Source: a plasmid. Taken from it: a stretch of DNA of 32,715 nucleotides. Below the pieces are notes generated by a model. It was not told where the DNA came from and did not search any database. It saw nothing but the letters and a program-made list of their open reading frames with translations. The stretch lies in assembly GCF_053078305.1 (NCBI RefSeq), contig NZ_CP166878.1. One strand, 5' to 3'. The position numbers were made by a program, and so were the translations under genes. Shown here piece after piece: positions 2,988 through 25,587 of the stretch; the first letter of the stretch is position 1; every line of letters begins with the position of its first letter.

Positions 2988-3000
2988 ACATTTAGCATTA

Positions 3001-3080
3001 TATGCTTATATGCTTATATGCTTATATGCTTATATGCTTATATGCTTATATGCTTATATGCTTATATGCTTATATGCTTA
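3001..3080. repeat. Perfect tandem octamer microsatellite (TATGCTTA x10)
   Basis: Ten uninterrupted head-to-tail copies of TATGCTTA directly readable in sequence, starting 14 bp after the virB11 stop. Confidence 0.95.
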
Positions 3081-3105
3081 TATCATTGTGTTTGTGTGAA
3101 ATATT

Positions 3106-3299
3106 GCTGTAACATCGACGGTCTACGACCACCTACCACCTGAATAGCTGTAGGTTCCGTGCGGTCAGGCTTGGCAGGGGGCTGACGCGGTTCCTGGCGA
3201 CATGAAACTCCCTGGTTAGGGGTATCGGCGCGACCTGGCATCTGTGACTCTATAAAGCCATTTTTCGCGCCTTCCATGCCGCTAAAGCGGCATATTCCA
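3106..3299 (+). repeat. 194-bp repeat family, copy 1 (upstream of ccdA)
   Basis: Near-identical to 18900-19093 and ~90% identical to 3962-4155; begins GCTGTAACATCGACGGTCTACG and ends with hairpin ATGCCGC-TAAA-GCGGCAT then ATTCCA. Confidence 0.9.
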
Positions 3300-3961: not shown

Positions 3962-4155
3962 GCTGTAACATCGACGGTCTACGACCACCTACCAGCCGAG
4001 TGGCTGTCTGTTCCGTGCAAATGGGCTTTGCAGGGGGCTGGCGCGGTTCCTGGCGACCTGAAAGCCCCTGGTTAGGGGTATCGGCGCGACCTGGCATCTG
4101 TGACTCTATGAAACCATTTTTCGCGCCTTCCATGCCGCTAAAGCGGCATATTCCA
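3962..4155 (+). repeat. 194-bp repeat family, copy 2 (downstream of ccdB)
   Basis: Same length and ends as copy 1; about 20 substitutions clustered in hairpin-forming segments, several compensatory. Confidence 0.9.
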
Positions 4156-15665: not shown

Positions 15666-15818
15666 CTACGGGGATGATAATACCCATGAGGTTGATACTT
15701 GGCAGAGTCAGCTTGTGGGCATTATCAGGGGACTATAAAAGCCCATTTAAATTGTATTTAAATCATCCGGTAACGGCAAGAAAAATAATGTGTCATTCAG
15801 GCATAAGTGCAGGGCCAT

Positions 15819-16787
15819 ATGATTAGTCCGGCAATTGATTATTTTGCGGCAAACTTGCCATACCGACCTTATCACGCGAATGAATTGCTCTATGGGCTTC
15901 GTATCGATAAGGCAGCTAAAGCAGTGCTGGCGCGTTATATACAGCATAATCCACCTCATGCAATGTACTGGCTTGTTTTTGACGTTGACAGGCCAGTTGC
16001 GGCGATTGACTGGAATGATCTTAATGCGCCCACACCTAATTTTACGGTCAAAAATCCGGTTAATGGTCATGCACACCTGTTTTATGGGTTAAAAACGGCA
16101 GTTCGTGTTGCCAAAGACGGTAGCATTAAGGCGATCGAGTTTGCTGCTGCGGTAGAGCGAGGATTACGTGACAAACTTAAATCAGATATCGGCTATGCAG
16201 GGCTGATCTGTAAAAATCCTCTCCATACATGCTGGCAGGTTGTTGAATGGCGTGGAGAACTTTATGAGTTAGCTGAACTGGCTGATTATGTTGATTTGTA
16301 CGCGTCAACAGCGGCTAACGATGAACAGGCATTCGATATCGACTTTAGTTATGGGCTTGGGCGAAATTGTTGGCTCTTCAATCTGACCCGTATCTGGTCA
16401 TATACAGCAATCCGGCAGGGCTGGCCTGATTTCCCGCAATGGAAAGAAGCGGTGATTCAGCGTGTCGAAATGTATAACGTGCAGTTAAGCGTGCCTTTGT
16501 CTCACAAAGAATGTGTATGCATTGGCTCCAGCATCGCCAAATGGACGCATAGACGCTTCACTGAAGCTGGATTTGAGCAATATGTAGCTGATACCCATAC
16601 ATCAGAAATTCAGGCTCGTAGAGGGCGTAAGAATCGCTCAGAAGTGCAGGCTGCTAAGGGGCGTAAAGGTGGGAAAATATCTAAAAGAGGGATTGTTGAG
16701 GATTCTGCGCGGAGTTTGAAACCGTGGGTAGAGTTAGGGATCAGTCGGGCAACCTATTATCGACGTAGGGCAAATGAGACCAAATAA
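15819..16787 (+). CDS. ColE2-type plasmid replication initiator (primase-type Rep, Replicase family)
   Basis: N-terminal region YRPYHANELLYGLRIDKAAKAVLARYIQHNPPHAMYWLVFDVDR is characteristic of ColE2-like Rep proteins as I recall them; basic HTH-like C-terminus; origin-like sequence overlaps the stop. Confidence 0.65.
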   Translation: MISPAIDYFAANLPYRPYHANELLYGLRIDKAAKAVLARYIQHNPPHAMYWLVFDVDRPVAAIDWNDLNAPTPNFTVKNPVNGHAHLFYGLKTAVRVAKDGSIKAIEFAAAVERGLRDKLKSDIGYAGLICKNPLHTCWQVVEWRGELYELAELADYVDLYASTAANDEQAFDIDFSYGLGRNCWLFNLTRIWSYTAIRQGWPDFPQWKEAVIQRVEMYNVQLSVPLSHKECVCIGSSIAKWTHRRFTEAGFEQYVADTHTSEIQARRGRKNRSEVQAAKGRKGGKISKRGIVEDSARSLKPWVELGISRATYYRRRANETK

Positions 16788-16815: not shown

Positions 16816-17015
16816 TCTTGATCCTTGCAGACAGATCCTTTGCCTTTAGTGATCTTCCGATTTTCAGGTATTGAGTCTTTTATGAGAGAGATGATAGCGC
16901 CCGCCGCAGCCCCAGCGACCGAACCGCCAGGTGAGCGAGTAGGCGAGGAGGCGCAAGGGAGTCAGAGGTTGATGTTTGCACTTACGCTCGATGTTTGAGC
17001 ACGGCAAGAAGACAA

Positions 17016-17291
17016 ATGGAGAGTATGATGATGGTCTGTATACTTGTTGTGTCAAATAACGGTCGGGAAGAATTGATTGATTTTAATCCCGATCATGATT
17101 TAGCGCACATTATCAAATCATACCGGACACCAGAAAACAGGATGGTATGTATTATCCAGGATGGTAAGCGCATTCTTCGTTGGGATCGCAGTTATGCTTC
17201 CCGTGCAAAAAATCACTGGCGTAAGGTAGATCCAGACAGTTTTGAGATTTTAGGGTCTGTTGAATATCTCCGCTATGTTGGTCAGGGTTAG
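17016..17291 (+). CDS. Hypothetical protein (91 aa)
   Basis: ORF from ATG 17016 (track begins at TTG 16995); no family recognised; stop abuts the Tn21-like repeat. Confidence 0.35.
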   Translation: MESMMMVCILVVSNNGREELIDFNPDHDLAHIIKSYRTPENRMVCIIQDGKRILRWDRSYASRAKNHWRKVDPDSFEILGSVEYLRYVGQG

Positions 17292-17293
17292 TT

Positions 17294-17340
17294 GGGGCGT
17301 TGAAAACGGAAAATAACCCACGCTAAGACTGTTTTTTAAC
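17294..17340 (+). repeat. Tn21-subfamily-like inverted repeat, left arm
   Basis: GGGGCGTTGAAAACGGAAAATAACCCACGCTAAG matches the inner 25 bp of the Tn21 IR (remembered ...CAGAAAACGGAAAATAAAGCACGCTAAG); inverted partner at 18563-18609. Confidence 0.6.
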
Positions 17341-17649
17341 CAGGCTATGATAATGCTATCTGTGACGGATGATGGTCGTTGCTCTTTTGTTAATGCTAAC
17401 GGATGCGTACATTAGCATTAACTTTTTGTGTTATGTTGCACGTGAATTTTTGAGTTTTAATATTTATATAATGTTATGAATATTAAAGATAAATGATGAA
17501 CATGCTTTGTGATGGCTTTTGGCGCATAGATTGATCTTAAGATCTGCGCATGTTATTTTTATGCGGTTTTGACGAATTTATAAGGGTAGGACGTTCCCGT
17601 AACAGCGTCCAGGGGAGGGGGTAGCGAATTTATAGCCCCCGGAATGCAA

Positions 17650-17710
17650 CAACCCCCTGATATCTCTCTTAGAGCTTTTGCGGGGCCAAAGAAGATAATC
17701 AGGGGGTCCA
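17650..17710 (+). promoter_or_regulatory. Long stem-loop in repA leader (candidate antisense-RNA target)
   Basis: Arms CCCCCTGATATCTCTCTT / AAGAAGATAATCAGGGGG around an 18-nt loop containing GCCAA (one base off the conserved IncFII/IncB loop hexamer); location upstream of leader peptide and repA. Confidence 0.45.
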
Positions 17711-17743
17711 AAGCAGGCTTTTGCCTGTAAAGGATTATAGCAA

Positions 17744-17800
17744 ATGCATTTTTCAATACAAGACTACTGCCCGGCAATAAGTGCGGGCGGTGGTGGCTGA
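17744..17800 (+). CDS. Leader peptide overlapping repA start (translational coupling candidate)
   Basis: 18-codon ORF MHFSIQDYCPAISAGGGG whose stop lies 17 nt inside repA, the arrangement seen for tap/repY-type leader peptides. Confidence 0.45.
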   Translation: MHFSIQDYCPAISAGGGG

Positions 17801-18506
17801 AAAGAACAATTCCTTAATCCCCCGCATATCGCCGTCAGGGGTGGCCAAACAAAGTCCATGCTATAACGTTGTGTCGCGTAAGCGACGCCGTTTCCTCAAT
17901 CGCTGGATTAAATCGCTGGCGACGGTCGCTGGGCGTGTCAAAATCAAAAACGAACTCCGCCGCCGTATCCGGCATAACCGATATTGGGTTAATGAGGCTA
18001 ACAAGTTTGGCATAGAGGCACTTTGCGAACTGATGTTAGCTATCCTGGATGATCTCGATTTACGCTCCTGGGAAACCAGGCATAACCTCGAAACACTGGC
18101 AGAACGTGCCGGACTGGTGACACGCAGTGACGCGGGGCGTAAATCTATTTCCCGTGCCAGTAGGGGATGTGATCGCCTGGTCTGGTTGAATGCGATCATT
18201 ACAGATAAAGCGCCGTTTAACCCCTATGATGCACGGTGTGCCTGTAAACACATTGAAGTAACCGAAGACTTCTTTGCCATACTCGGCATTCCGTTAAAAC
18301 TGGTTTATCGGGAACGTGCCAGGCTGTTAAAGGCAGATCCTAATGAAATGATTTACTCCGGGGATGCCAGACTGATAGCTATCAGAGTCCAGAACTGGAC
18401 ACGGAAAGCGGCAGCCGGATTAGCCCGGATGAAAGCGAAACGCGACGCAGCTCGACAACGCAAAAAAGAATATTACGCTCACCCACCTACCCCTATTCCG
18501 GTCTGA
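17781..18506 (+). CDS. repA: IncFII-family replication initiator RepA
   Basis: Segment LETLAERAGLVTRSDAGRKSISRASRGCDRLVWLNAIIT aligns with the RepA1 core of R100-type proteins (SITTLAIECGLATESAAGKLSITRATRALTFLSELGLIT); GTG start right after an in-frame stop. Confidence 0.75.
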   Translation: MRAVVAEKNNSLIPRISPSGVAKQSPCYNVVSRKRRRFLNRWIKSLATVAGRVKIKNELRRRIRHNRYWVNEANKFGIEALCELMLAILDDLDLRSWETRHNLETLAERAGLVTRSDAGRKSISRASRGCDRLVWLNAIITDKAPFNPYDARCACKHIEVTEDFFAILGIPLKLVYRERARLLKADPNEMIYSGDARLIAIRVQNWTRKAAAGLARMKAKRDAARQRKKEYYAHPPTPIPV

Positions 18507-18562
18507 TACAGGCTAACTTACCGCCTTATGGGGCGGTGTATCGCCACGTCCATAATAAAAAG

Positions 18563-18609
18563 CTGTACAAAAAATAGTCTTGGCGTGGGTTATTTTCCGT
18601 TTTCCATGC
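18563..18609 (-). repeat. Tn21-subfamily-like inverted repeat, right arm
   Basis: Reverse complement reads GCATGGAAAACGGAAAATAACCCACGCCAAGACTATTTTTT, matching the left arm over ~36 bp with 2 mismatches; outer GGGG is absent. Confidence 0.6.
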
Positions 18610-18659
18610 TCAGAAAAGAGCAGTTATAAGCTGTATCATTGGGTAAACAATGCACAGGT

Positions 18660-18668
18660 TGTGGATAA
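18660..18668 (-). promoter_or_regulatory. Consensus DnaA box (TTATCCACA)
   Basis: Forward TGTGGATAA is the exact complement of the 9-mer consensus; lies about 150 bp downstream of repA. Confidence 0.5.
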
Positions 18669-18705
18669 TCATACTTAAAGTGCAAACGATATGCCGCAAT
18701 TACTC

Positions 18706-18750
18706 TTTTGCTTCTCTTTTAGTTACTTACGTACTAAAAGAGAAGCAAAA
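18706..18750. repeat. 18-bp perfect inverted repeat with 9-nt spacer (origin-region hairpin candidate)
   Basis: TTTTGCTTCTCTTTTAGT - TACTTACGT - ACTAAAAGAGAAGCAAAA; no T-run on either strand, so not a terminator. Confidence 0.8.
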
Positions 18751-18899
18751 AAGAAAAACATTACTGTTATCCCCTTTAACAAGTGAATAACCTAAAAACA
18801 TCGGCGCAAGCGCCTCAAAAGTAGCACCCCTCGCAAGCTCGGGGCATTAGAAACAACAGCATCCCATCATCACAATCGAACTATTATTCATCTATCTTC

Positions 18900-19093
18900 G
18901 CTGTAACATCGACGGTCTACGACCACCTACCACCTGAATAGCTGTAGGTTCCGTGCGGTCAGGCTTAGCAGGAGGCTGACGCGGTTCCTGGCGACATGAA
19001 ACTCCCTAGTTAGGGGTATCGGCGCGACCTGGCATCTGTGACTCTATAAAGCCATTTTTCGCGCCTTCCATGCCGCTAAAGCGGCATATTCCA
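18900..19093 (+). repeat. 194-bp repeat family, copy 3
   Basis: Differs from copy 1 by only a few substitutions; same orientation; sits between the repA origin region and the next gene. Confidence 0.9.
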
Positions 19094-20221: not shown

Positions 20222-20340
20222 GTAGATAAATGACGTTGCTACGTGGTCTCCCTCTTTTGCTGATTTCACGTAGCACTCTCACTCTGCCGCTACTTCTCGT
20301 TATTCTGAACAGATGATTGAAAAATAAGGAGAATCAAATA

Positions 20341-20379
20341 ATCTCTTGATTTTATAATCCTATGATTATAAGATTGTTG
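20341..20379 (+). promoter_or_regulatory. Operator-like block P1 (CTTGATTTTATAATCCTATGATTATAAGATTGTT)
   Basis: About 85% identical over ~38 bp to 23919-23956 and related to the TGATT-repeat region upstream of parA. Confidence 0.5.
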
Positions 20380-21583: not shown

Positions 21584-21621
21584 GGGGTTTGAAGCCCAAC
21601 CGTACGAAAACGTACGCTAAG
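21584..21621 (+). mobile_element. Tn1000/Tn3-family 38-bp terminal inverted repeat
   Basis: GGGGTTTGAAGCCCAACCGTACGAAAACGTACGCTAAG, close to the gamma-delta/Tn3 IR consensus (GGGG...ACGAAAAC...ACG.TAAG); a resolvase gene remnant ends 2 bp away. Confidence 0.75.
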
Positions 21622-21622
21622 T

Positions 21623-21862
21623 TCATTTCTTGAACAACCTGGCTGACTCTATGTATTTGTACAGCGTTGGCCTCGATATCCCCATCAACACACAAATCTG
21701 CGCAACGGTATGTTTTTTCTCGTTATAGAGTTGAACAGCAAGGGCCTGTTTATCCTTACTCAGTGTTTTCGGCCTGCCGCCCTTACGTCCTCTGGCTCGT
21801 GCTGCTTGAAGCCCGGCCTGAGTTCTCTGGGGGGTCGCGCCCATTTCCTCTAAAAGTCTCAC
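21623..21862 (-). pseudogene. Serine recombinase (resolvase/invertase) C-terminal HTH fragment
   Basis: 79-aa ORF containing GRKGGRPK...HTVAQICVLMGISRPTLYKY, the C-terminal DNA-binding domain only; the catalytic N-terminal domain is missing. Confidence 0.7.
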
Positions 21863-21885: not shown

Positions 21886-22100
21886 TTATTTATAAAACAT
21901 TGCAATTTTAGCATCATTTTTTATTGTTCTTTTTAACCTGAAGTACGTCGATCGAGAGATACCTGTTTTTTCTGTCACACTGCCCAGAGATTCTCCCTGT
22001 GATATAAGCTCCAACGCTGTAGGCGTTCGTGGATGCTTCTTCCTGCCAAATTTTACGCCTGCGGCAAGTGCCGCTATTGGGGTCAGTTTGGATATAGAGA
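21886..22100 (-). pseudogene. Second recombinase-like HTH fragment (no start codon)
   Basis: Minus-strand frame encodes ...AALAAGVKFGRKKHPRTPTALELISQGESLGSVTEKTGISRSTYFR, resembling a serine-recombinase C-terminus; the frame runs into motif copy c with no initiator. Confidence 0.4.
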
Positions 22101-22109
22101 ATTATTGTA
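22086..22109 (+). repeat. GTTTGGATATAGAGAATTATTGTA motif, copy c
   Basis: Third direct copy; lies at the 5' truncation point of the recombinase-like fragment. Confidence 0.8.
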
Positions 22110-22404
22110 CGGCAAGCCTGTTTTTTGAACAGACTTACCTATCGCGATAGGGTGTACTCCCGTGCTATACGGCGTTTTCAGGGGCTTTGGCCTTAATCGG
22201 ATAACCTAAATGCGACATAGCAAGAGCGATAACTTAAAGGCGATAGCCGCTGATGTTAAATCAATACGTTAGAATCTTAAATTGATTAAATAATGCGCTT
22301 AACGTACAAAAATTTCCGTTTCCCAAACCGCCCCCATATTGTACGTTTCCCTAACCGACCCCTTACTGGTCGCGGAAAAATCCAGGTTTCCGGCCTGGAA
22401 CCCC

Positions 22405-22536
22405 TATACAATCACTTGATTCGATAATTATAAAATTAAGTGATTTTATGATTGCATGATTCTATGAGCATGGGATTATTAGAATGTTTGGCAGAGGTAC
22501 TATGTGAACAAAGGGGAGGGGAAAATGCCTAAAGTT
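22405..22536 (+). repeat. Orphan duplicate of par promoter-operator plus first 4 parA codons
   Basis: About 94% identical over 132 bp to 24844-24975, including RBS and ATGCCTAAAGTT, then diverges; the operator inverted repeat is degenerate in this copy. Confidence 0.85.
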
Positions 22537-22614
22537 GGAGCAGCGGGAGCGTTCGAACAGAGACTTACGGTTTCGTTCTTTGTGCAGCAGTTGAAACCGT
22601 AATTATTTGTTTTA

Positions 22615-22865
22615 GGGGTTTGAGGCTCAGTGGAACAATAACCGCCGTTAAGCGGTCATTTTAAATAGCCAAAAATCAACCAGCCAATTTACATCGTGAA
22701 TCTGCGTTCTTGGCTATCTGTTTTGGGGGGCCAAGTTGGCTTTACTCATCCTGGCCGTTTGCGGAACAAAAGACGTTGTTGATCTCAACAGATTGATTAA
22801 CCTGTTATTGACCATTCAATTGAACCGCTTAACCGCCTTTTGAGTTCCACTACTCCCCAAACCCC
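22615..22865. mobile_element. Miniature Tn3-family element (TIME-like), 251 bp, with 5-bp target-site duplication
   Basis: 38-bp IRs GGGGTTTGAGGCTCAGTGGAACAATAACCGCCGTTAAG (22615-22652) and inverted GGGGTTTGGGGAGTAGTGGAACTCAAAAGGCGGTTAAG (22828-22865); flanked by direct repeat TTTTA on both sides; no ORF inside. Confidence 0.8.
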
Positions 22866-22882: not shown

Positions 22883-23091
22883 GGGGTTTGAGGGCCAACC
22901 GTACGAAAACGTACGGTAAGAGGAAAATTATCGTCTTAAAAATCGATTAGTAGACAATGCCGTCCGTTAAGTGCCAATTTTCGATTAAAAAGACACCGTT
23001 TTGATGGCGTTTTTCTATGTCCATTATGTTTTGATATATCAGACAGTTACTTCACTAACGTACGTTTTCGTTCCATTGGACTTCAGCCCCC
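22883..23091. mobile_element. Second miniature Tn3-family element (TIME-like), 209 bp, with 5-bp target-site duplication
   Basis: IR GGGGTTTGAGGGCCAACCGTACGAAAACGTACGGTAAG (22883-22920) and an inverted IR at 23054-23091 that contains TGGAACGAAAACGTACGTTA; flanked by TAGAA on both sides. Confidence 0.75.
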
Positions 23092-24843: not shown

Positions 24844-24963
24844 TATACAATCACTTGATTCGATAATCATAAAATCAAGTGATTTTATGATTGCATAATT
24901 TTATGAGTATGAGATTATTAGAATGTTTGGCAGAGGTACTATGTGAACAAAGGGGAGGGGCAA
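24844..24963 (+). promoter_or_regulatory. par promoter-operator (candidate centromere/operator)
   Basis: Perfect 12-bp inverted repeat AATCACTTGATT ... AATCAAGTGATT plus reiterated TGATT motifs directly upstream of parA. Confidence 0.6.
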
Positions 24964-25587
24964 ATGCCTAAAGTTATAGCATTTTTAAATGGTAAGGGGG
25001 GGGTGTCTAAGACAACCTCGGCAGTCAATATTGCTACTGCTCTTGCTCGTAAGGGATACAAAGTTGTCGTTGTGGATACCGATCCTCAGGGAAGTGTTAG
25101 TAACTGGTATGATGACAGTAAGTGTGTTTTTGATGTAGCAGAAGCTACGACAGAAAAAGAAATTTACCGTTTGCGGAAGGCGCTTCCTTTGCACGATTTT
25201 ATCATTATTGATGGTGCTGCGGCGATTTCGGCGATATCGGCAGCTGCTGTTATGGTTTCTGATCTTGTCATTATCCCAGTTACTCCTTCGCCGCTTGATT
25301 TTGCTGCATGTGGCGCGATATTGGCAGTGATAGAAGCTCGGCAGGATTTACGCCCGGTGATTGCTCGCTTTTTGATTACTAAAAAAGTACAGCAAACGCA
25401 TATGCTATCTTTGCTGAAAGAATCTATTGCAGAAACAAGCATACCAGCATTAAAAACAGGAACGTCGTACAGGCAGTCATATATAAAGTCTATGCTAGAT
25501 GGTGGTACTATATTTGATACAAAAGATAGTGCTGCTAAAGGTGAAATATCAGTCATTACAGAAGAAATACTTGGACTATTAAAATGA
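24964..25587 (+). CDS. parA: ParA-family partition ATPase (ParF-like)
   Basis: Deviant Walker [19 protein letters not shown]; ATG 24964 with GGGGAGGGG RBS (ORF track begins at upstream GTG 24943). Confidence 0.9.

Follow-up and report, generated by a model that had tools for sequence, protein, structure and literature searches.

Inverted Tn3-family ends on both sides of an Escherichia coli plasmid repA gene are probably two separate remnants and not the borders of a mobile unit

The plasmid DNA studied here (32,715 nt from contig NZ_CP166878.1 of assembly GCF_053078305.1; "the window" refers to this whole stretch) contains a replication gene, repA, between two inverted sequences that resemble transposon ends. 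From the letters alone it had been proposed (the sequence-only reading) that this arrangement indicates mobilisation or capture of a replicon. A replicon residing inside a transposon would, if true, represent a route by which replicons hop between molecules. The evidence presented below speaks against it and makes it probable that the arms are not the two ends of one element but independent leftovers, no longer active, of Tn3-family transposons or their miniature derivatives, located near the origin.

A repeat search recovered the inverted arms at the positions originally given for them. The copy-control RNA and repA are enclosed by a 59-nt inverted repeat with arms at 17297-17355 and 18551-18609 that are 80% complementary and separated by 1195 nt, such that the repeat reaches about 15-25 nt further inward than the approximately 36 bp assigned to it before. 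A 28-nt core, GAAAACGGAAAATAACCCACGCTAAGAC, occurs twice in the whole 32.7-kb window, i.e., in the left arm (17302-17329, plus strand, no mismatch) and in the right arm (18577-18604, minus strand, one mismatch), while zero occurrences are expected by chance and none was found in 100 shuffles. The arms are in inverted orientation with their tips outward and their interior sides towards repA, which is the geometry of two transposon ends. Their decay, suspected earlier, is evident from damage to both tips. The left arm (17294..17355, plus strand) is a solo, shortened Tn3-family terminal repeat of 34 nt (17294-17327, GGGGCGTTGAAAACGGAAAATAACCCACGCTAAG) that starts with the tip GGGG at 17294, has CGCTAAG as its inner end and is followed by the inward extension ACTGTTTTTTAACCAGGCTATGATAATG; 4 nt of the canonical 38 are missing. 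The right arm (18551..18609, minus strand) is likewise a solo remnant of a Tn3-family end with an inward extension, ACTATTTTTTGTACAGC. Its IR-derived part (18579-18607), read as the reverse complement ATGGAAAACGGAAAATAACCCACGCCAAG, comprises 29 nt and indeed lacks the outer GGGG, so that full-length ends of about 38 bp with GGGG are not present on both sides. In complete agreement with the sequence-only reading, there is no 5-bp target duplication around the two-armed unit: TAGTT precedes the left arm, and the right arm is followed by GCTCA (by AGAGC, if the right end is taken as the full 38 nt). A consensus scan for promoters and terminators yielded nothing at either arm.

Both arms are homologues of real Tn3-family ends. 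With an IR profile, nhmmer detected the left arm at E = 9e-6 and the right arm at E = 7e-4. More than 5000 plasmids have a Tn3-family end that the left arm matches, and thousands of sites matched by the arms are adjacent to tnpA. The designation of the arms as Tn21-like holds as a statement of kinship, as the left arm agrees with the Tn21 IR at 31/37 positions (the Tn21 IR sequence used here is found without mismatch at the tnpA end in R100), but they are closer still to another Tn3-family subgroup. The latter is exemplified by an intact 12.6-kb transposon in the Vibrio furnissii plasmid NZ_CP040989.1 that has tnpA (encoding WP_004729615.1), tnpR and the target duplication TTATT on both sides, and ends reading GGGGTCCGCTTGGAAAACGGAAATTATCCCACGCTAAGACTxTxTTTTGTACA. 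Aligned with ends of this type over about 62 nt that take in the ACTxTxTTTTGTACA extension, the arms agree at 46-51 positions (46-50 of about 62 nt for comparison with the Vibrio element itself). The real ends of Tn21 and the Vibrio transposon are 38 nt long, carry GGGG tips and go along with tnpA, tnpR and a 5-bp duplication (TTATT), a set of features that the arms do not have. Because the similarity to bona fide termini runs about 17 nt past the 38-bp repeat in both arms, an interpretation of the repeats as origin or partition sites of the replicon family without any relationship to Tn3-family ends can be rejected. This alternative, named together with the original proposal, was correct insofar as the right repeat is conserved in position within the replicon family, and incorrect insofar as that repeat is Tn3-related.

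The enclosed gene, repA (17781..18506, plus strand, 241 aa as a mechanical ORF), appears to encode a distant IncFII/IncL-M-type initiator. RepA matches Pfam IncFII_repA (PF02387) with 8.4e-7 over residues 74-204 and reaches 53.8 bits with NCBIfam RepA_IncFII_LM, under the cutoff of 70; its homologue in relatives is annotated as "RepA family replication protein", and relatives with 70-75% identity are typed as IncFII by MOB-suite. Directly upstream lies a full-length PK-repBA regulatory pseudoknot (17651..17778, plus strand; Rfam RF01089, 86.4 bits vs. a gathering score of 45), the translational control element of repA of the I-complex type. Taken together, the term IncFII-type is loosely right for a module with a distant RepA and I-complex-type control. 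Shortly after the repA stop codon, a GC-rich hairpin, ACCGCCTTATGGGGCGGT (18520..18537, plus strand), opens the spacer between repA and ori, and its core, ACCGCCTTA..GGCGG, is unchanged in 15/15 replicon relatives. The right arm lies inside this spacer. Outside the arms follows a block (18660..18850) that is conserved in all relatives and is presumed to be the origin based on the architecture of IncFII and I-complex replicons. It features a DnaA box, TGTGGATAA (18660-18668), followed by AAGTGCAAACG, an AT-rich palindrome (18700-18756) and a second DnaA-like box, AGTGAATAA (18782-18790); the hairpin, a 130-nt spacer, TGTGGATAA and the AT-rich palindrome are kept in 15 relatives. The spacer, which lies downstream of repA between a terminator-like hairpin and a DnaA box, corresponds in position to CIS of IncFII (R1) and I-complex (IncB) plasmids, and the likeness to the I-complex extends to control by the PK-repBA pseudoknot. 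The role of CIS and the idea of its distal part as a phase-dependent spacer reportedly go back to Masai and Arai in 1988 and to Praszkier and Pittard in 1999. A transposon end in the CIS spacer between repA and ori is not known to have been described.

Comparison with related plasmids established the borders of the replicon module. Positions 17390-19092 of the window form one alignment block, with 86.7% identity, with a whole plasmid of a group (group B) that does not have the left arm. The left edge of the module common to group B is a 32-nt palindrome, TTAATGCTAACGGATGCGTACATTAGCATTAA (17390..17421), a widespread operator-like motif, and the module ends at 19092 within one of three copies of a segment of about 195 nt (18900..19093, plus strand). 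Since group B homology spans this entire region, passing straight through the right arm and continuing 480 nt beyond, the right arm lies within the replicon rather than at its edge. The ends of the two-armed unit do not coincide with breakpoints of homology; contrary to the sequence-only reading, there is no support for the repeats as the borders of a module, and the presumed origin block is located outside.

These borders bear directly on the possibility that the pair represents a decayed non-autonomous Tn3-family transposon, similar to TIME-COMP or a cassette, that captured copy control and repA. Such an element would have inverted arms with tips out and interiors towards repA, and its cores could well be as similar as those in the window and in locus L001 (27-28/28 identical in this main lineage). 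The inward extensions differ (AACCA..GGCTAT vs. GTACA) with each matching its own natural end variant, a situation conceivable for the termini of a single element, and in TIME-COMP2 a plasmid replication system was carried and transposed (PMC4133298). Nevertheless, we regard capture as most improbable and as largely refuted by the module borders: backbone homology runs beyond the right arm, the presumed origin lies outside the arms, and a unit devoid of an origin could not have founded a replicon. Furthermore, the right arm appears to predate the left one, as the same site is occupied in group B and in a far clade, both without a left arm; there is no 5-bp duplication, the tips are shortened, and single ends are not complete TIMEs. 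In line with this, neither a TnpA nor a TnpR homologue is encoded in the window, and a profile scan found no partner IR near either arm.

The same rep unit at other loci with flanking 5-bp duplications, the observation that would have been expected for a mobile unit, was looked for in PLSDB, in 5,426 E. coli genomes and in one metagenome scan. In all three collections the two-armed unit is present in one genomic context with the same pilI junction, namely in 10 PLSDB records, 14 RefSeq E. coli plasmids and 2 metagenome contigs. The metagenome scan made use of the module-edge palindrome and, as this motif is widespread, the replicon was present in only 4 of 114 loci, adding two group A and two group B contexts (group A being the plasmid lineage of the window, see below). 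Occurrence of the right arm in lineages that never had the left arm, together with this single context, lends no support to the mobilisation or capture proposed initially. The statement that a replication gene inside transposon-like ends is unusual was likewise too strong, since TIME-COMP2 has a plasmid rep system between Tn3-type ends and transposed (PMC4133298).

The history of the right arm can be followed across the replicon family, which matched 2,063 records of PLSDB. The site holds a Tn3-type end at a fixed position in 13/15 related replicons (10 of these 13 without a left arm) from at least eight genera, with E. coli, Klebsiella, Pantoea, Pectobacterium, Shimwellia, Serratia and Erwinia among the hosts, while recognisable IR sequence has been lost in L009 and L010. 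An IR profile scan of the replicon relatives revealed no upstream left-hand end in loci outside group A. Compared to the full-length variants of L011 and L007, the right arm of the window has a 9-nt internal deletion of the outer domain. In its inner domain, the window-type remnant is identical to the contemporary end L004 at 24/26 positions and the far-clade remnant in the same spacer is identical to MITESen1 ends at 22/26, while the two remnants agree with each other at only about 15/26 (all manual counts). Simple decay does not explain these likenesses; therefore, some re-insertion or conversion must be assumed.

Given its persistence at one site, the spacer end (and conceivably the left arm as well) may alternatively have been kept because it is useful, either as a putative immunity decoy or as a length-constrained spacer for a cis-acting RepA. 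Apart from the fixed position in 13/15 replicons, it could be cited that the inner, transposase-binding part (alignment columns 1121-1160) is better kept than the tip region (scores of 0.92-0.95 vs. 0.84), that the remnant of each clade resembles contemporary mobile ends, and that spacer lengths of 130, 138-140 and 149-151 nt differ by steps of about one helical turn. TnpA mediates target immunity by interacting with IRs (PMC9579193 and its reference 27). A putative transposase-binding site, refreshed to match circulating elements, might accordingly shield the replication region from cognate Tn3-family transposons, an idea to which we give a slim chance; group A would then have gained a second such putative site across repA. 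The usefulness of the end in the wider sense is also unlikely. The element shows no conservation peak but is part of a uniformly conserved block from the 3' end of repA to the origin, for which reason no selection on it is claimed; between clades it is the most diverged piece of this block, and it is a hotspot of change between group B replicons otherwise 99% identical. The loss of recognisable IR sequence in L009 and L010, the variability of the inner domain of the left arm within group A, and the presence of a solo gamma-delta-type end and an IS101 insertion on the plasmid of the window, in whichever order they arrived, likewise argue against it. Should the immunity idea prove true, it would mean protection of the region where replication-coupled insertion is likeliest and most damaging, and an end fixed in the spacer constitutes a simple system for asking whether solo ends confer target immunity.

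The left arm is confined to a single lineage, the group A plasmids, and its inner domain varies among their members. It starts 2 nt after the stop codon of a pilI-like ORF (16995..17291, plus strand) and is separated from the start of the common replicon module by a terminator-like hairpin (17362..17382, plus strand; consensus scan only) that is followed by TCTTTTGTT. An "empty-site" analysis proved uninformative: in each of the three backbones with the pilI-like gene, homology does not extend beyond the stop codon, and the junction is therefore silent on insertion. Situated 2 nt past this stop codon and about 60 nt before the module-edge palindrome, the left remnant therefore marks a rearrangement junction. 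An intermediate with a full transposon at the left arm was not present in the 5,426 E. coli genomes, and none with a complete transposon was found for the right-arm site either.

Inverted duplication or gene conversion of the right arm may also have produced the left arm when the replicon joined the group A backbone. The cores in the main lineage are identical or one base apart, and the common state AAAATAACCCACGC is absent from the right arms of group B. However, the left arm has the GGGG tip and the outer sequence GGGGCGTTG that are missing from the right arm, and it continues inward with TTTTTTAACCAGGCTATGAT, matching the natural ends L005 and L006, where the right arm has TTTTTTGTACAGC. 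In addition, 5 positions distinguish the two arms of L011, and in L067 and L127 there is no co-variation of the arms within the plasmid, which also rules out concerted evolution of the two arms. An origin by copying thus appears very unlikely.

On the basis of the preferred reading, i.e., two separate remnants, the following order of events is inferred. The right remnant would be old, its site between the terminator-like hairpin of repA and the DnaA-box origin being that of the whole replicon family, and repeated changes may have altered it since, among them a 9-10-nt deletion, substitutions and, probably, its replacement or conversion by related ends. The remnant on the left, at the rearrangement junction, is specific to the approximately 30-kb E. 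coli plasmid lineage of the window, and neither remnant would now be able to act as a transposition end with the other. That solo ends flank repA may reflect a preference of insertions for the replication region, where they are also tolerated. Insertion of Tn4430 needs replication of the target, with hotspots adjoining the rep operon and a unidirectional origin (bioRxiv 10.64898/2026.05.30.728999), and pLM8P2 harbors a TIME just downstream of rep (PMC4133298). Across different lineages, Tn3-type remnants occupy the repA-ori spacer, the stretch just past the origin and a position upstream of the rep control region. Replication-coupled insertion with hotspots beside rep and ori, as reported, would explain the pile-up of ends, and this distribution lends natural-history support to the recent proposal that replicating DNA close to plasmid origins is a target of Tn3-family elements.

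Some observations count against separate remnants. In the main group A lineage, the identity of the cores at 27-28/28 positions is closer than would be expected of unrelated remnants given the variability of the right-arm site between and within groups, both interiors face repA in the geometry of a single element, re-insertion or conversion has to be assumed, and no complete-transposon intermediate was found at either site.

Several known systems are comparable. Many solo Tn3-family IRs have been reported (PMC4133298), and those in plasmids likewise consist of a single 38-bp-type end (GGGG...ACGYTAAG) without a transposase, the rest of the element having been lost. The window differs in that a whole replicon family has one remnant fixed in its repA-ori spacer and that another lies opposite across repA, mimicking a transposon. 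TIME-COMP2 from the Pseudomonas plasmid pZM1P1 also has a plasmid rep gene between ends of the Tn3-family type and demonstrates that such ends can mobilise a replication module, as it was caught transposing with 5-bp duplications (PMC4133298). It is bounded by two complete 262-bp TIMEs, whereas each arm in the window is one truncated end; the pair shows no duplication, occurs in one context and leaves the presumed origin outside. Inverted transposon-like ends are no evidence of a mobile unit unless borders, duplication and independent contexts agree, for which the locus provides a worked example, along with a replicon family of at least eight enterobacterial genera in whose repA-ori spacer a transposon end is a fixed component.

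The named enterobacterial TIMEs IS101 and MITESen1 (Gomi and Yano 2026, PMC13367494) share the same family of termini, and the far-clade spacer remnant is MITESen1-flavoured (22/26), yet they are complete two-ended miniature elements while the arms are one-ended. Both occur in the window, where they served as positive controls: IS101 (93.8% over 209 nt) is intact with a perfect TAGAA duplication, and the MITESen1 copy matches at 87.5% over 257 nt. The window furthermore contains at least five more solo Tn3-family ends.

The repA gene and its copy-control region are enclosed by an inverted repeat whose arms, in a repeat search of the window, span 17297-17355 and 18551-18609 (59 nt, 80% complementary, spacing 1195 nt). 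The 32.7-kb window contains a 28-nt core, GAAAACGGAAAATAACCCACGCTAAGAC, at only two sites, one in each arm (0 and 1 mismatch), whereas none of 100 shuffles of the sequence contains it. The left arm comprises 34 nt, from GGGG at 17294 to CGCTAAG ending at 17327, while the right arm reads ATGGAAAACGGAAAATAACCCACGCCAAG on the minus strand (18607-18579), is 29 nt long and is devoid of GGGG. Both arms are real but decayed Tn3-family transposon ends. In agreement with the sequence-only reading, which had related them to terminal inverted repeats (IRs) of the Tn21 subfamily, the left arm matches the Tn21 IR at 31 of 37 positions; the Tn21 IR used here matched the tnpA end in R100 exactly. Matches to the left arm were found at the Tn3-family ends of >5000 plasmids. 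Closer than Tn21 is a tnpA- and tnpR-carrying element of 12.6 kb on Vibrio furnissii plasmid NZ_CP040989.1, which is flanked by the target duplication TTATT and has GGGGTCCGCTT[G/A]GAAAACGGAAATTATCCCACGCTAAGACTxTxTTTTGTACA at both ends. The extension of the right arm, ...AAGACTATTTTTTGTACAGC, corresponds to the post-IR extension of this element, and that of the left arm, ...AAGACTGTTTTTTAACCAGGCTAT, fits a second natural end variant (L005, L006). Overall, the arms are identical to these natural ends at 46-51 of ~62 nt.

The arms do not delimit a captured or mobile replicon. A replicon in common with the window, at 87-89% identity, is present on a second backbone, ~24-kb MOBC/MPF_T plasmids (group B), and whole-plasmid comparison places the common block at 17390-19092 of the window. 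This block begins at a palindrome ~35 nt inward of the left arm's inner edge, crosses the right arm and continues for another 480 nt; the left arm is absent from group B. Both tips are shortened, leaving ends of 34 and 29 nt and, as noted earlier, a 5-bp target duplication was not found at the arms (flanks TAGTT vs. GCTCA or AGAGC). No partner IR was found near either arm, each being a single end, and the window contains neither an ORF of transposase size nor a tblastn match to TnpA or TnpR. The two-armed form was always located behind the same pilI-like gene (10 PLSDB plasmids, 14 RefSeq E. coli plasmids and 2 metagenome contigs). Positive controls from the window itself, with reference sequences from Table S2 of PMC13367494, were IS101 at 22883-23091 (93.8% over all 209 nt, perfect TAGAA duplication) and a MITESen1 copy at 22079-22335 (87.5% over 257 nt). 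The segment was rejected as a mobile unit on every test run, i.e., by its borders, hallmarks, enzyme and contexts; the homology and positions of the arms, the borders and the lack of hallmarks were observed directly. From the sequence-only reading, the observation of decayed transposon ends around repA thus stands and the captured or mobilized replicon does not.

Between the arms lie a terminator-like hairpin (17362-17382), a 32-nt palindrome (17390-17421), a PK-repBA pseudoknot (17651-17778; Rfam, 86.4 bits vs. gathering score 45), the RepA ORF (17781-18506, 241 aa) and, 3' of the repA stop codon, a strong hairpin (18520-18537). The designation "IncFII-type" was upheld in part: a Pfam match (8.4e-7) points to a distant IncFII/IncL-M relation, but the score against NCBIfam RepA_IncFII_LM (53.8 bits) is below the cutoff of 70, and RepA appears to be just a distant initiator of this type. 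In IncFII and I-complex replicons the origin is located downstream of repA, after the CIS spacer. By this established architecture, the block beyond the right arm, in which an AT-rich palindrome (18700-18756) is preceded by a DnaA box, TGTGGATAA (18660-18668), and followed by a second, DnaA-like one, is the presumed origin, which would thus reside outside the repeat-bounded segment.

The region between the repA stop and the origin was aligned for 15 replicons, i.e., the window, two further members of its ~30-kb E. coli plasmid lineage (group A), two from group B, three replicons of 70-75% identity that MOB-suite assigns to IncFII, and seven loci obtained in a species-representative genome scan anchored on invariant replicon motifs. 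A recognizable Tn3-type end occupies the same position in the same orientation in 13 of them; in this replicon family, the right-arm site is of long standing. Groups A and B have versions of "GAAAACGGAAA" flavor, almost full length in the group A plasmid L011 (AGGAATCGCTTGG...) and in locus L007 (GGGAGCCGCTTGG...), and a 9-10-nt outer-domain deletion is common to the window, the compared plasmid L001 and the group B plasmid L002. More distant relatives from E. coli, Klebsiella, Pantoea, Pectobacterium, Shimwellia, Serratia and Erwinia feature ...TGGTTTGGATTTCGRAAATTATTGTACGTTAAGGCTGTTTTTTGTAC, a MITESen1-like flavor, and loci L009 and L010 retain the GTACAAAAAA part alone. The element does not form a conservation peak. 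It is situated inside an evenly conserved block between the 3' end of repA and the origin, is the most diverged part of that block between clades, and shows 16 differences over 50 positions in a pair of group B replicons with >99% identical repA. By manual counts of the inner domain, the two flavors agree with each other at ~15/26 positions and each with a contemporary mobile end at 22-24/26; vertical decay alone therefore does not account for this pattern, and related ends must have been re-inserted at the site or have converted it. In L011 (CP088859.1; 17921-18098), the sequence from the full-length right arm to the DnaA box is group B-like, which indicates that replicons of groups A and B have recombined inside the origin region. 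The distance between hairpin motif and DnaA box (18538-18659 in the window) forms three classes across the 15 loci, at 130, 138-140 and 149-151 nt; since these step by ~10 nt, about one helical turn, they suggest a helical-phase constraint on the spacer holding the transposon remnant. A retained function of the right-arm sequence, either target immunity or a length-constrained spacer, would fit the fact that a transposase-binding-type sequence has stayed in one place throughout a replicon family, with degraded tips and a kept inner domain, and is nevertheless judged improbable.

The left arm occurs in group A only and starts 2 nt past the pilI-like stop codon. Homology of the pilI-like gene to two other backbones likewise stops at the stop codon, and the left junction is therefore uninformative. 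With regard to the cores, left and right arm agree at 27-28 of 28 positions in the main lineage, as would be the case if the left arm had been copied or converted from the right one. However, the left arm has a different tip, a different outer sequence and a different inward extension, the arms of L011 deviate at five positions, and co-variation is not seen in the compared loci L067 and L127. We read the left arm as an independent remnant and assign a lower probability to copying or conversion.

Transposition of Tn4430 is reported to need target replication, and its insertions to cluster in the intergenic region by the rep operon or from a unidirectional origin to a nearby obstacle (Nicolas et al., bioRxiv 10.64898/2026.05.30.728999). 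Furthermore, a Tn3-derived miniature element (TIME) directly 3' of a rep gene as well as numerous solo Tn3-family IRs have been described (Szuplewska et al., PMC4133298), and the arms are the same kind of object as the latter. On this basis, the simplest account would be repeated landing near rep/ori: Tn3-family elements and TIMEs would insert again and again around this replicon's rep/ori, the bulk of each insertion would afterwards be deleted in these compact plasmids, and single ends would persist where sequence is tolerated, namely in the distal repA-ori spacer and at the edges of the module. What looks like a "transposon" around repA would then consist of two remnants juxtaposed by chance. 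Causation by a hotspot, the order of events and the present inactivity of the ends are what we infer here. A rep gene inside transposon-like ends, considered unusual at first, has a documented, functional precedent in TIME-COMP2, a TIME-bounded composite that contains the replication system of a plasmid and was seen to transpose (PMC4133298).

The window also carries IS101, MITESen1 and several solo ends, none with a transposase. A 38-mer at 21584-21621 has 92% identity to the right end of IS101. The adjoining ORF on the minus strand (21623-21862, 79 aa) weakly matches serine recombinases in their C-terminal DNA-binding part; another 38-mer (22615-22652) is more diverged and gamma-delta-like. 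Elements appear to be nested where the MITESen1 copy (flanks CTATT/ATATT) abuts a partial Tn3-type end (22336-22362). This 1.5-kb stretch of TIMEs and solo ends is a graveyard of Tn3-family ends. The same 209-bp IS101 pair of ends is present in L011 (21052-21260). In other lineages, further remnants are located just past the origin, i.e., GGGGTCAGTTTGGAAATCGGAAATT ~560 nt downstream of the spacer site in group B and the Tn3/Tn1-like CTCAGTGGAACGAAAACTCACGCTAA ~615 nt downstream in the more distant relatives.

Several other repeats were observed. A ~195-nt segment occurs in three direct copies (91-98%; 3106-3299, 3962-4155 and 18900-19093), the third forming the end of the replicon module common with group B; it matches many ~1.5-kb cryptic E. 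coli and Klebsiella plasmids at ~80-83% and may act as a signal for priming or single-strand initiation. The ~11 tandem copies of the 8-mer TTATATGC (2998-3085) directly upstream of the first copy are possible iteron-like or protein-binding repeats. Two direct copies of a 138-nt unit (93%; 22405-22542 and 24844-24981) with the internal palindrome ATACAATCACTTGATTCGATAAT... and a related inverted copy at 20332-20377 may represent partition or regulatory sites. The palindrome on the left border of the replicon module, TTAATGCTAAYGKAYGCGTACATTAGCATTAA, was found at 114 metagenome loci, 110 of them without this replicon, frequently just 5' of an ORF starting MRDKT..AMR.FLGGRCYTAE and at times as two inverted copies separated by ~540 bp; it resembles a widespread operator.

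Group A plasmids may contain two replicons, since a second initiator-like gene (15807-16787, 326 aa) is located 1 kb upstream of repA. Its relatives are annotated "replication initiation protein"; its nucleotide sequence shares ~65% identity with the rep genes of E. coli and Shigella plasmids of 5-7 kb, and it has no NCBIfam match. Between this gene and the pilI-like gene lies a sequence (16895-16956) that we take to resemble ColE1-type primosome assembly sites. Group B has two copies of such a sequence (L002, 3678-3765 and 5671-5758) as an 88-nt inverted repeat (89% complementary) that flanks the entire replicon, origin included, and is a second, unrelated instance of inverted repeats around rep.
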